From assembly GCF_058153355.1 (NCBI RefSeq), contig NZ_CM177019.1: a stretch of DNA of 64,000 bases, one strand, 5' to 3'. The notes under the pieces were generated by a model. It was not told where the DNA came from. It saw nothing but the letters and a program-made list of their open reading frames with translations, and ran no database searches. The first letter of the stretch is position 1, and the number at the start of each line of letters is the position of its first letter. This document shows positions 823 through 37,234 of this stretch, piece after piece. The position numbers were made by a program, and so were the translations under genes.

Positions 823-2763
823 ATGAGATTAACGACGAAATTTTCGGCCTTTGTTACGCTGCTCACTGGGTTAACAATTTTTGTGACTTTGCTGGGCTGT
901 TCGCTAAGTTTCTACAATGCCATTCAGTATAAGTTTAGTCATCGCGTTCAGGCAGTGGCAACGGCGATTGATACCCACCTTGTGTCGAATGACTTCAGCG
1001 CATTAAGGCCACAAATTACCGAATTAATGATGTCAGCAGATATCGTTCGTGTAGACCTGCTGCACGGCGATAAACAGGTATACACACTGACCAGAAATGG
1101 TAGTTATCGTCCGGTTGGCACCAGCGATCTGTTTCGCGAACTGAGCGTTCCGTTGATAAAGCATCCGGGGATGTCGCTGCGTCTGGTTTATCAGGATCCG
1201 ATGGGCAACTATTTCCATTCGTTGATGACCACCGCGCCGCTCACGGGGGCGATTGGCTTTATCATTCTTATGCTCTTCCTGGCGGTACGCTGGTTACAAC
1301 GGCAACTTGCCGGGCAAGAATTGCTGGAAACCCGGGCTACTCGTATCTTAAACGGTGAGCGTGGCTCTAATGTGTTGGGAACCATCTATGAATGGCCGCC
1401 CAGAACCAGCAGTGCGCTGGATACGCTGCTTCGTGAAATTCAGAACGCACGCGAACAACACAGCCGTCTTGATACGCTGATCCGCTCTTATGCCGCCCAG
1501 GACATGAAAACCGGCCTCAATAACCGACTCTTCTTCGATAATCAGTTAGCAACGTTACTGGAAGATCAGGAAAAAGTAGGTACCCACGGGATCGTGATGA
1601 TGATTCGTCTACCGGATTTCAATATGTTGAGCGATACCTGGGGGCACAGCCAGGTTGAAGAACAGTTCTTCACTCTGACGAATCTGCTGTCGACATTTAT
1701 GATGCGCTACCCTGGCGCACTGCTGGCGCGTTACCACCGCAGTGATTTTGCTGCGCTGTTGCCGCACCGGACGTTAAAAGAGGCTGAGAGCATAGCCAGT
1801 CAGTTAATCAAAGCCGTCGATACCTTGCCGAACAATAAAATGCTCGATCGCGACGATATGATCCACATTGGTATCTGTGCCTGGCGTAGTGGTCAGGATA
1901 CCGAGCAGGTAATGGAACATGCAGAGTCTGCCACGCGTAATGCGGGATTGCAGGGCGGCAATAGCTGGGCTATTTACGATGACTCGTTGCCTGAAAAAGG
2001 ACGCGGTAATGTTCGCTGGCGTACGCTTATCGAGCAAATGCTGAGTCGCGGCGGCCCGCGCCTTTATCAAAAACCGGCGGTTACTCGCGAAGGTCAGGTT
2101 CATCATCGAGAACTCATGTGCCGCATCTTCGATGGTAATGAAGAGGTTAGCTCGGCGGAGTATATGCCGATGGTCTTGCAGTTTGGCTTATCGGAAGAGT
2201 ATGACCGCCTGCAAATCAGCCGTCTGATTCCACTATTGCGTTACTGGCCGGAGGAAAATCTGGCGATTCAGGTTACCGTTGAGTCGCTGATTCGCCCGCG
2301 TTTTCAGCGTTGGCTGCGCGATACGTTAATGCAATGTGAAAGATCGCAACGAAAACGCATAATTATTGAACTTGCAGAGGCCGATGTAGGTCAACATATC
2401 AGTCGTTTACAACCTGTTATTCGTTTAGTGAATGCTTTAGGGGTACGGGTAGCCGTCAACCAGGCTGGTTTGACGCTGGTAAGCACCAGTTGGATCAAAG
2501 AACTTAATGTTGAGTTACTCAAGCTCCATCCGGGGCTGGTCAGAAACATTGAGAAGCGAACGGAGAATCAGCTGCTGGTTCAAAGCCTGGTGGAAGCCTG
2601 CTCCGGGACCAGCACCCAGGTTTACGCCACCGGCGTGCGTTCGCGAAGCGAGTGGCAGACCCTGATTCAGCGCGGTGTTACAGGTGGGCAAGGGGATTTT
2701 TTCGCGTCCTCACAGCCACTTGATACTAACGTGAAAAAATATTCACAAAGATACTCGGTTTAA
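823..2763 (+). CDS. csrD: CsrD, regulator of CsrB/CsrC sRNA decay (degenerate GGDEF-EAL protein)
   Basis: 646-aa ORF MRLTTKFSAFVTLLTG...; length and position upstream of mreB match CsrD. Confidence 0.9.
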   Translation: MRLTTKFSAFVTLLTGLTIFVTLLGCSLSFYNAIQYKFSHRVQAVATAIDTHLVSNDFSALRPQITELMMSADIVRVDLLHGDKQVYTLTRNGSYRPVGTSDLFRELSVPLIKHPGMSLRLVYQDPMGNYFHSLMTTAPLTGAIGFIILMLFLAVRWLQRQLAGQELLETRATRILNGERGSNVLGTIYEWPPRTSSALDTLLREIQNAREQHSRLDTLIRSYAAQDMKTGLNNRLFFDNQLATLLEDQEKVGTHGIVMMIRLPDFNMLSDTWGHSQVEEQFFTLTNLLSTFMMRYPGALLARYHRSDFAALLPHRTLKEAESIASQLIKAVDTLPNNKMLDRDDMIHIGICAWRSGQDTEQVMEHAESATRNAGLQGGNSWAIYDDSLPEKGRGNVRWRTLIEQMLSRGGPRLYQKPAVTREGQVHHRELMCRIFDGNEEVSSAEYMPMVLQFGLSEEYDRLQISRLIPLLRYWPEENLAIQVTVESLIRPRFQRWLRDTLMQCERSQRKRIIIELAEADVGQHISRLQPVIRLVNALGVRVAVNQAGLTLVSTSWIKELNVELLKLHPGLVRNIEKRTENQLLVQSLVEACSGTSTQVYATGVRSRSEWQTLIQRGVTGGQGDFFASSQPLDTNVKKYSQRYSV

Positions 2764-2941
2764 CCTGCCGTTTAATCCGTTTTCACGTAGAATAACGCGC
2801 GCTGCGTCTCATGGGAGTGTGCTTGTCTGCTCGCCAGATTGTTGCAGCACATATGCAGATGAATGACCTTACGCGGTTGCAAACAGGCGAGGAATGCTGC
2901 TGATGCATTAAGCCTTTCTGGACTCAGGCAGAGATTTGTAA

Positions 2942-4111
<1,170 letters not shown>

Positions 4112-4176
4112 TCGGATACAGGCAGGGGAAGCGTCTGTTTACCCTGCTTGGTCTGATACGAGAATACGCATAACTT

Positions 4177-5768
<1,592 letters not shown>

Positions 5769-36298: not shown

Positions 36299-36318
36299 AA
36301 CTTAGTTCGTTTTAAAGA

Positions 36319-36346
36319 TTCTGCAGACACTGTCTGCAGAATTCGA
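36319..36346. repeat. Palindrome of the CAGAC-N3-GTCTG family (copy A), just 3' of yhcH
   Basis: ttctgcagacactgtctgcagaattc; related to the three palindromes inside yhcG. Confidence 0.6.
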
Positions 36347-36367
36347 AACCGCTGAAATTAACGGCGT

Positions 36368-37234
36368 CTATAGCCTTCCTCTAGCACCGCCTGTGTTCGA
36401 ACGAGTTCGGCGGTGGAAAAACAGCAGATCGACACGAAACCAGTTGTCATCAATGCGTAACCTTCGCTGCCGACCAACAAAGGCAAAATCATCCCCAAGT
36501 TCCAGCATTAAATCCATCAGGTGATTGATCAGCGCCTCCTCAAAATCGGATTCTGAGTATTCATCTTTCAATTCCAGAAATTCGAGCACAAAGGGATCGC
36601 GTATCGCCTGTTGCGGAAGAATATGCGTCTCGGCAGGAGCGTGTTGTTGCAGCATGGCTGATTTGTCATGTGACAGTAGTGTTCGCTCATAAAATTGGGT
36701 CGCAATTTGCCGCTCTAGCTGGCGGACAGACCAACCACAGCGGAGCGCCTCTTTTTCATAAAAGCTGCGGGCGTCAGCGTTTTTAACGGAAAGTAGACGG
36801 ACGTAGGTGGACCAAGGCAGGGGGAACGATTTGGCAGACAGCGTCTGCCAAATCTTTGCCGATGGGAATTCTGCAGACGGTGTCTGCGGAATTCCCAATG
36901 GTGTTAATTCGCCAGACACTGTCTGGCGAATTTCAACATGTTGAAAAAAGAGGTAAAAAAGCCTCATTTGGCGTAAGTTTTTTGCAGAGAACCCACGCTT
37001 ATACCTTAGACTTAAATCCTTTGATAGTCGCTTGATTAGCTGCGCACCATACGCAGCTCTGGCCTCGCCACCTTGTTCAAATTCGACAATTCGTCGGCCA
37101 ATTTCCCAGTACGTCGCGGTCATCAGCGCGTTAACGCTACGTACCGTTTCCGTTCGGGCGCTATCGACCAGATGAATAATGCCGTCGTGGATTTGCTGGT
37201 AGCCTGCTGTGGTTCCTTCTGAGAGCGATTCCAT
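36368..37234 (-). pseudogene. yhcG: yhcG-like DUF1016 / PD-(D/E)XK nuclease-family gene, apparently truncated near the 3' end
   Basis: 288-aa ORF MESLSEGTTAGYQQIHDGIIHLVDSARTE... runs to ...RIDDNWFRVDLLFFHRR then gives 12 unrelated residues and a stop; the following ExK nuclease motif is absent; K-12 YhcG recalled as about 375 aa. Confidence 0.5.
36830..36932. repeat. Three tandem perfect palindromes (CAGAC-N3-GTCTG cores) inside the yhcG coding sequence
   Basis: tttggcagacagcgtctgccaaa (36830-36852), gaattctgcagacggtgtctgcggaattc (36866-36894), aattcgccagacactgtctggcgaatt (36906-36932); each encodes I-x-Q-T-x-S-x-E/K on the minus strand. Confidence 0.7.

Follow-up and report, generated by a model that had tools for sequence, protein, structure and literature searches.

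The window, the whole 64-kb stretch of DNA analyzed here, is an E. coli-type chromosome segment. Its genes run in the order tldD, aaeRXAB, argR, mdh, degQS, zapE, rplM-rpsI, sspAB and dcuC, continuing with nanRATEK-nanQ, yhcG, gltDB, yhcC, arcB, rpoN, lptABC and kdsCD, up to mlaFEDC. The closest complete genome in our collection is 98.9% identical across 24 kb. A BLAST comparison of window positions 11.8–60.8 kb with this nearest genome found all 46 of the other genes compared to be full length and free of gaps, which rules out general genome decay. The yhcG open reading frame (36368..37234, minus strand; 288 codons plus a TAG stop in the ORF list) sits between gltD and nanQ, downstream of the former and convergent with the latter. 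Orthology by position is clear, the gene lying downstream of gltBD and adjoining the nan operon with the same neighbors as in E. coli; in Salmonella salamae and Citrobacter freundii, too, yhcG follows gltBD. K-12 YhcG (b3220; DUF1016_N PF17761 plus YhcG_C PF06250; COG4804) is encoded at the same locus, upstream of convergent nanQ, although gltF-yhcADEF intervene there and yhcG directly follows gltD in the window. As nanQ is convergent and no same-strand gene lies downstream of yhcG, loss of the gene is expected to have no polar effect.

That this gene belongs to the YhcG/DUF1016 family had been proposed from the sequence, and both its identity and its position held. The DUF1016_N domain is complete (aa 19–184; 36683..37180, minus strand; Pfam PF17761, E 7e-44), scoring 149.7 bits where the cut-off is 32.8 and matching over the same span, aa 19–184, in the full-length orthologue. 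A search for the C-terminal domain, a check that the original prediction had suggested, matched only positions 1–71 of the 157 in the YhcG_C model (Pfam PF06250) within the ORF, a remnant covering aa 208–276 (36407..36613, minus strand); full-length E. coli YhcG (375 aa) covers positions 1–155 of 157. The NCBIfam search returned no model match.

The gene also carries short palindromes. Across its 64 kb, the window has four occurrences of the motif CAGAC-N3-GTCTG, where 0.03 would be expected, and all four are at yhcG. Three are in frame within the gene: r1 (AATTCGCCAGACAGTGTCTGGCGAATT; 36906..36932, encoding IRQTVSGEL), r2 (AATTCCGCAGACACCGTCTGCAGAATT; 36867..36893, encoding IPQTPSAEF, 39 bp from r1) and r3 (GATTTGGCAGACGCTGTCTGCCAAATC; 36828..36854, encoding IWQTLSAKS, 39 bp from r2), a spacing of exactly 39 bp or 13 codons. 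The fourth, Pd (ATTCTGCAGACAGTGTCTGCAGAAT; 36318..36342), is intergenic between the convergent yhcG and nanQ, lies 16 nt past the true yhcG stop and is kept in all yhcG-positive alleles examined. None of the four has an assigned strand, and each is the center of a near-perfect dyad of 25–27 bp. All four palindromes, the three in frame and the downstream one, are shared by K-12 yhcG. The in-frame copies encode a peptide inserted into the DUF1016_N linker, which AlphaFold2 (AF2) predicts to be unstructured (pLDDT ~51 at residues 97–125). Tandem Repeats Finder, run on the window, missed the 3 × 39-bp array, and the promoter/terminator scan did not call Pd a terminator, as it has no T-run. The Rfam matches at the palindromes were confined to sub-threshold noise from miRNA models, none of it credible.

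A 251-bp deletion in the nuclease domain

Across residues 1–276, the window ORF shares 98% identity with E. coli YhcG and 96% amino acid identity with K-12 YhcG, and it has the same N-terminal domain as the latter. The full-length yhcG genes of strain 2020CK-00188, the best match, and of K-12 are both 1,128 bp long and encode 375 aa. A three-way DNA alignment of the window with these two alleles showed one indel only, a gap of exactly 251 columns. BLAST placed gene nt 1–827 at window positions 37234–36408 and nt 1078–1128 at 36408–36358. Alignment, BLAST coordinates and breakpoint context thus agree on a deletion junction at 36409|36408 (36407..36409, minus strand), where the G at 36408 is common to both sides, a microhomology of 1 nt. 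Gene nt 828–1078, encoding residues 277–359, are missing from the window. Because 251 equals 83 × 3 + 2, that is, 83 codons plus 2 nt, the frame shifts and residues 277–359 are lost.

Beyond the junction, the ORF ends in ...RIDDNWFRVDLLFFHRR followed by TRSNTGGARGRL and a stop. This frameshifted tail of 12 unrelated residues plus TAG occupies 36368..36406 (minus strand) according to the ORF list and the alignment. The true C-terminus persists out of frame: translation of 36358..36408 (minus strand) gives ELVRTQAVLEEGYRRR plus TAA, and this peptide is identical to residues 360–375 of full-length YhcG. The original prediction had described about 276 YhcG residues followed by 12 unrelated ones and a stop, had attributed them to an out-of-frame internal deletion of roughly 250 bp, and had taken the peptide in the other frame for a genuine C-terminus. 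Each of these readings was borne out, with pairwise alignment and BLAST fixing the length at exactly 251 bp and ELVRTQAVLEEGYRRR matching YhcG exactly. It had also named orthologues of about 288 aa with the same C-terminus as evidence that would count against a deletion. The near-identical full-length homologues are 349–375 aa long, and none of them shows the 288-aa form or ends in its tail; the few homologue entries that are shorter are partial or damaged in other ways.

What the deletion removed was assessed with two family alignments, one of 24 and one of 55 sequences (35–98% identity), and an AlphaFold2 model of the full-length YhcG orthologue (mean pLDDT 83). In the alignments, E228, E232, F242, E245, D269, L285, K286, G296, Q297 and Y301 are invariant or nearly so, in agreement with the motif E-D-E(I/L/V)K published for COG4804/pfam06250 (PMC1189080). 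The catalytic motif E...D...(D/E)-x-K with its Q...Y helix is incomplete in the window product: E232 and D269 are kept, and D284-L-K286, Q297 and Y301 are deleted. The difference from K-12 YhcG is the same, the window product being frameshifted and without residues 277–359 and so without D284-L-K286, Q297 and Y301. The missing motif had been anticipated as ExK; it is indeed gone, but in E. coli YhcG it reads D284-L-K286 and is therefore DxK rather than ExK.

In the AF2 model, the nuclease core comprises helix 228–246, strands 250–261, 264–274 and 279–287, helix 292–309, and strands 318–325 and 328–334, forming a whole alpha-beta-beta-beta-alpha-beta PD-(D/E)XK core. The window product keeps helix 1 and strands 1–2 of it, and the YhcG_C remnant accordingly retains helix 1 with E232 and strands 1–2 with D269. 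The deletion takes out strand 279–287 (strand 3, bearing the DxK that positions metal and water), helix 292–309 (Q297/Y301) and strands 318–325 and 328–334, together with helix 341–350 and the first residues of helix 354–374. The best PDB fold matches of the full-length model are all PD-(D/E)XK nucleases (MGME1, Cas4-family, NucS, AdnAB and RecE); Cas4, MGME1 and NucS match with probabilities of 0.99–1.0 and E about 2e-3 to 1e-2, albeit with low TM-scores of 0.2–0.37. We found no sequence-level PDB relative of YhcG, and its N-terminal helical domain (~200 aa) is without a solved counterpart.

A protein that has lost the DxK strand, the Q/Y helix and further core strands cannot be an active PD-(D/E)XK nuclease. 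From motif and predicted fold, and from what is established about nucleases of this fold, we infer that the 288-aa product would be without nuclease activity; it is probably unstable, and its intact N-terminal domain (aa 1–207) could retain some activity of its own. With the (D/E)xK motif and all of the later nuclease core absent, the proposal of an inactivated nuclease gene stands. The allele carries, in addition, a private F242L substitution (TTA, 36509..36511, minus strand) at a residue invariant in the 55-sequence family alignment; residue 242 is F in 212 of the 213 fetched homologues with a recognizable motif and L in none. This substitution is weak but consistent evidence for what may be relaxed constraint on the window allele. 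Judged by its sequence, the gene is a truncated member of the YhcG/DUF1016 family by descent, a pseudogene rather than a functional member. We therefore regard it as very probable that window yhcG is a loss-of-function allele, produced by a single frameshifting 251-bp deletion in the C-terminal nuclease domain.

Origin and distribution of the deletion allele

The most likely course of events is that one spontaneous 251-bp deletion fused codon 276 to a point midway through codon 360. Since the ends share only 1 nt, the deletion may have arisen by illegitimate recombination of the microhomology or slippage type. No direct repeats of ≥6 nt were found at or near the deletion ends, and a 7-nt inverted repeat, CACCGCC/GGCGGTG, brackets the junction. 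By its breakpoints, the deletion looks like a one-off illegitimate event.

We searched for the junction in other genomes. A 40-mer centered on it, either half of which alone is too short to seed a match, had no match in 5,426 complete E. coli genomes. The junction 38-mer CTGCTGTTTTTCCACCGCCGAACTCGTTCGAACACAGG was absent from JGI metagenome contigs and from one genome per GTDB species, a scan that says little about Shigella, which GTDB folds into E. coli. The exact 288-aa protein was absent among ~15 billion proteins. On these searches, the 251-bp-deletion allele would be private to a strain or lineage, or an artefact.

An assembly, sequencing or editing artefact, with an intact 375-codon yhcG in the true genome, would account for a junction that is found in none of the 5,426 E. 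coli genomes, the species-representative genomes or the metagenome contigs, and for a 288-aa protein that is in no collection searched. We nonetheless consider an artefact unlikely. The ends and their vicinity lack any direct repeat of ≥6 nt that an assembler could have collapsed; on either side of the junction, the sequence is perfectly colinear with the reference alleles; and the absence of indels from the other 46 genes of the region indicates that errors are not common in this part of the assembly. The private F242L at an invariant residue, moreover, fits a gene already free of selection.

The short form might instead be a functional variant in which the N-terminal domain and the nuclease stub keep a nuclease-independent role, such as DNA binding at the palindromes, and are maintained for it. 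The complete DUF1016_N domain and the four intact palindromes in and after the gene are in keeping with such a role, as are the N-terminal-only fragments annotated in other E. coli, but the latter are annotated pseudogenes beside a transposase. The architecture and tail occur in no natural family member among ~8,000 scored homologues and 150 cluster representatives, the frameshifted tail is unrelated sequence, and F242L strikes an invariant residue. The stub, with helix 1 and strands 1–2 and without strands 3–5, is unlikely to fold, as judged from the model. A maintained function for the short form is thus very unlikely. A recurrent or programmed deletion, with the palindromes or phase variation as its driver, is scarcely credible: the family does show palindrome-associated length variation (375-, 362- and 349-aa alleles), palindromes do bound a larger presence/absence polymorphism in E. 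coli and the 7-nt inverted repeat does surround the junction, but the microhomology is just 1 nt, the junction occurs in 0 of 5,426 genomes and neither breakpoint lies in or beside a palindrome. With the nearest palindromes 66 bp and 420 bp from the breakpoints, palindrome-mediated deletion was rejected.

A single private deletion accords with what is seen of yhcG in E. coli as a whole. This part of the gene is present in 3,711 of 5,426 complete E. coli genomes, and about a third of E. coli are without yhcG. Whole-gene absence is represented by 947 genomes with a "solo palindrome" allele. Other lesions include a transposase insertion, an IS2 insertion (H14), in-frame internal deletions (P0017 and P0090) and a frameshift (P0049). 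These lesions, in E. coli and Salmonella, are likewise independent inactivations of the same dispensable gene; their breakpoints differ, and the 251-bp junction is in none of them. Many E. coli lack yhcG or carry a damaged copy; it is a dispensable accessory gene, and the window allele is an ordinary strain-private pseudogene, a new allele of a familiar kind. From the population distribution, the deletion looks neutral or nearly so.

Full-length YhcG matches the PADLOC PDC-S02 models at E 9e-136 (positions 10–344 of 351) and the window product at E 3e-95 (positions 10–252 of 351); PDC-S02 itself is a bioinformatic phage-defense candidate only. The sole PDC-S02 phage test in the literature searched is an assay of a representative in E. 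coli B; four of the eight candidates protected against T4, T5 or T7, and the PDC-S02 representative was not one of them (bioRxiv 10.1101/2024.09.26.614923). The YhcG family is enriched beside type I restriction–modification and other phase-variable defense genes (PMC9881135) and is carried on ICEs and other mobile elements (PMC4316617), and K-12 yhcG is transcribed (PMC7967276). We found no functional study of yhcG, DUF1016, PDC-S02 or COG4804 in the literature searched. The family counts 24,659 cluster representatives at E ≤ 1e-3, making YhcG/DUF1016 a very large uncharacterized nuclease family that is routinely scored as a "defense candidate". For annotation, window yhcG should be marked as a pseudogene and left out of PDC-S02 defense gene counts, and the deletion allele possibly also serves as a lineage marker. 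The deletion itself, as one more strain-private pseudogene, matters little. The palindrome system is more interesting and merits separate follow-up.

Palindromes in and around YhcG genes

The typical dyad of YhcG genes is 27 bp long, AATT-N3-CAGAC-N3-GTCTG-N3-AATT, and lies in frame in the disordered linker of the N-terminal domain, often with a 39-bp period. Its copy number within the gene varies: at the DNA level, the 375-aa Escherichia allele has three copies and the 349-aa allele one, and the 362-aa Escherichia allele has an intermediate number of peptide repeats. In a read-through yhcG variant, the downstream palindrome is translated as ...ILQTLSGES. A 48-nt BLAST query around one copy matched a median of three places per E. 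coli genome. Palindromes also bound the yhcG-containing segment that is missing in some E. coli. The K-12-type order is gltD-P0-gltF-yhcADEF-yhcG-Pd-nanQ, and the 947 genomes with whole-gene absence read gltD-[one palindrome]-nanQ, in which the single copy has the left flank of P0 and the right flank of Pd.

We analyzed the conservation of the palindrome beyond Escherichia. Distant homologues (36–57% identity, GC 33–61%) retain a dyad at the same place in the DNA, and it is conserved with compensatory changes in bacterial and archaeal YhcG genes. Changes in one N3 triplet are matched by changes in its partner (CGC/GCG, GGT/ACC, TGC/GCA and CAA/TTG), quite different cores occur in some homologues (such as CACGC/GCGTG, CACAC/GTGTG and CACCC/GGGCG), and in one homologue the same palindrome DNA is translated in another frame (DRQCLS). 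These three observations indicate that it is the DNA that is conserved and not the peptide. Over 23 homologue sites, 85% of cells were paired compared with 72 ± 1.4% after shuffling, a value reached by none of 500 shuffles. Double-change cells at the same sites numbered 43 compared with 14 ± 3 after shuffling (again 0/500), and slid controls gave at most 12.

The association is phylogenetically broad. With one genome per species, AATT-N3-CAGAC-N3-GTCTG-N3-AATT was found at no fewer than 120 loci in many bacterial phyla and several archaea. The matches listed comprise 131 occurrences, 89 of them inside YhcG-HMM ORFs (85 of these in one frame) and a further 7 within 300 bp of such an ORF. Among these matches, the unconstrained triplets of the 89 in-ORF copies are fully complementary in 57, compared with 1.6% by chance, and 31 different triplets occur. 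As an unbiased sample, we used genes on viral contigs that were found by peptide motifs distant from the linker, taken from an 8-sequence alignment. A linker dyad of at least 10 pairs was present in 29 of the 40 distinct near-full-length genes in this sample; the remaining ~146 kb held about 10 such dyads. Copies also lie immediately upstream or downstream of YhcG genes, and one gene (L088) adjoins a 37-copy tandem array of the palindrome with a 78-bp unit. Solitary copies exist as well, with no YhcG remnant within 1.2 kb, their count being approximate.

The form of the dyad bears on how it could be read. Among the matches listed, 60 of the 89 in-ORF copies pair perfectly on either side of one central base, and the center has no strand preference (AGT in 37, ACT in 23). 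Both features are easier to reconcile with a cruciform, or with a duplex site for a symmetric dimer, than with an mRNA hairpin, and an RNA-hairpin reading is accordingly not favored. We also observed, among the matches listed, an excess of C·A over G·T mismatches on the coding strand of the dyads.

In the literature searched for yhcG, DUF1016, PDC-S02 and COG4804, there is no description of these palindromes, and the YhcG-associated palindrome seems undescribed. The sole paper found that combines yhcG with a palindrome concerns an antisense ncRNA at the 5′ end of K-12 yhcG. We tentatively propose, as a possibility rather than the expected answer, that the YhcG nuclease has this dyad as its cognate site for recognition or recombination. 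If this were true, YhcG genes would be self-marked nuclease cassettes, mobile or self-regulating, whose palindromes mediate gene gain and loss, as at E. coli gltD-nanQ, and changes in repeat number. In that case, the window allele would be a natural variant with a dead nuclease and all four sites intact. The presence of a conserved, covarying palindrome both within YhcG genes and next to them is a testable lead to the substrate and biology of the family.

Two known kinds of element invite comparison. REP elements with their RAYT partners are high-copy intergenic palindromes served by a Y1 (IS200-like) HUH transposase, and Rickettsia palindromic elements (RPEs) are palindromic DNA lying in frame within coding sequence. 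The YhcG palindrome resembles the REP/RAYT system in that it is short and accompanies a single nuclease-type gene family, lying in and around its genes, and resembles RPEs in lying in frame within coding sequence. It differs from REP/RAYT in that its partner is a PD-(D/E)XK nuclease and not a Y1 HUH transposase, and in the absence of high-copy dispersal, all four matches in the window being at yhcG and the 48-nt query matching a median of 3 places per E. coli genome. Unlike both REPs and RPEs, it sits, across phyla, at the homologous place in the linker of a single protein family. The YhcG palindrome is a member of neither the REP/RAYT nor the RPE class.

Palindromes within and beside yhcG

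Four near-perfect palindromes of 25–27 bp were identified in the window, sharing the consensus AATTC-NN-CAGAC-N3-GTCTG-NN-GAATT. Three of them lie in frame inside yhcG at a spacing of 39 bp (r1, 36906-36932; r2, 36867-36893; r3, 36828-36854), and the fourth, Pd, is intergenic and follows the yhcG stop (36318-36342). The core CAGAC-N3-GTCTG was found four times in the window against an expectation of 0.03, with all four copies at yhcG. Translation of the in-frame palindromes yields a 13-aa repeat (..QTxS..), and the linker carrying this repeat is predicted to be unstructured in the AF2 model.

Alignment of YhcG proteins (A3; P0008, P0033, P0012 and others) revealed that the number of palindrome repeats varies between Escherichia alleles. 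At the DNA level, the 375-aa allele contains three in-gene palindromes and the 349-aa allele one. The peptide repeats of a 362-aa allele are intermediate in number. A 391-aa variant, in which the stop is read through, extends its translation into the downstream palindrome. Directly upstream of the repeats lies a divergence hot spot of Escherichia yhcG, and in the E. coli genomes H24 and H20 the match to the window begins only at about 36850 or 37000.

yhcG lesions and the background of the window allele

The window allele carries a private substitution, F242L (codon 242; 36509-36511). Phenylalanine occupies this position in 212 of 213 fetched homologues and in every member of a 55-sequence alignment of the family; the change fits a relaxation of selection on the inactivated gene. 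Natural E. coli and members of related genera carry further independent yhcG lesions: in-frame deletions of residues 236-281 and 105-172 (P0017, P0090), a late frameshift (P0049), a protein truncated to 265 aa (P0003), a transposase insertion (locus L004) and an IS2 insertion (H14). The strain of the window was absent from a collection of 5,426 E. coli genomes, in which the best match reached 98.9% over 24 kb. Comparison of window positions 11853-60778 with the nearest complete genome (L005) gave per-gene identities ranging from 96.7% (arcB) to 100% with zero indels, and this gene-by-gene variation is a recombination mosaic.

Haplotypes of the gltD–nanQ region

In E. coli, three haplotypes of the gltD–nanQ region were distinguished: gltD-yhcG-Pd-nanQ, as in the window; gltD-P0-gltF-yhcADEF-yhcG-Pd-nanQ, as in K-12, where P0 is the copy following gltD; and a yhcG-less arrangement, found in 947 of 5,426 genomes, with exactly one palindrome in a 67-nt gltD–nanQ spacer. 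Palindromes were mapped in this region at 697-723 of L003 (E. coli Ecol_732), 1827-1851 of L137 (strain KFu023) and 2072-2096 of L002 (K-12). Because the left flank of the lone palindrome is that of P0 and its right flank that of Pd, the segment that is present or absent is bounded by the palindromes.

Reading L003 by eye, we also noted a possible 19-codon mini-ORF (693-752) that encloses the lone palindrome of this yhcG-less locus, with GAGG and then 7 nt ahead of the ATG (MNSPDSVWRIYKTSYPTKF). The location of the palindrome inside it may be a coincidence.

The palindrome across the YhcG/DUF1016 family

We compared family loci from L006, L007, L009-L013 and L134-L136, genome contigs (L014-L133) and viral contigs (L138-L193). 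The linker palindrome was present in 29 of the 40 family genes of an unbiased sample from viral contigs, and among the matches listed from species-representative genomes, 89 of 131 lay inside YhcG ORFs. No Rfam entry for the palindrome, and no description in the literature searched, was found. Some family members have palindromes with different cores, and one homologue reads the palindrome DNA in another frame.

Among the matches listed, in-gene palindromes of L014-L133 had coding-strand stem mismatches that were mostly C.A or A.C (24/37) and rarely G.T (3/37), so that wobble pairs would form on the template strand only. A preference in codon use (Lys over Glu) may account for this excess, as may repeated counting of related sequences.

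In a Rhodothermales MAG (L088), a tandem array at 2472-5348 adjoins a yhcG-family gene (1201-2373), beginning ~150 bp upstream of it. Its 78-bp unit (2 × 39), which holds the palindrome, is repeated ~37 times, and the array constitutes an open 1,013-codon ORF on the same strand as the gene. Across homologues, the palindrome keeps a constant position in the linker, and its stem shows compensatory changes; it is a DNA feature of the YhcG/DUF1016 gene family as a whole, occurring in many phyla of bacteria and in some archaea.
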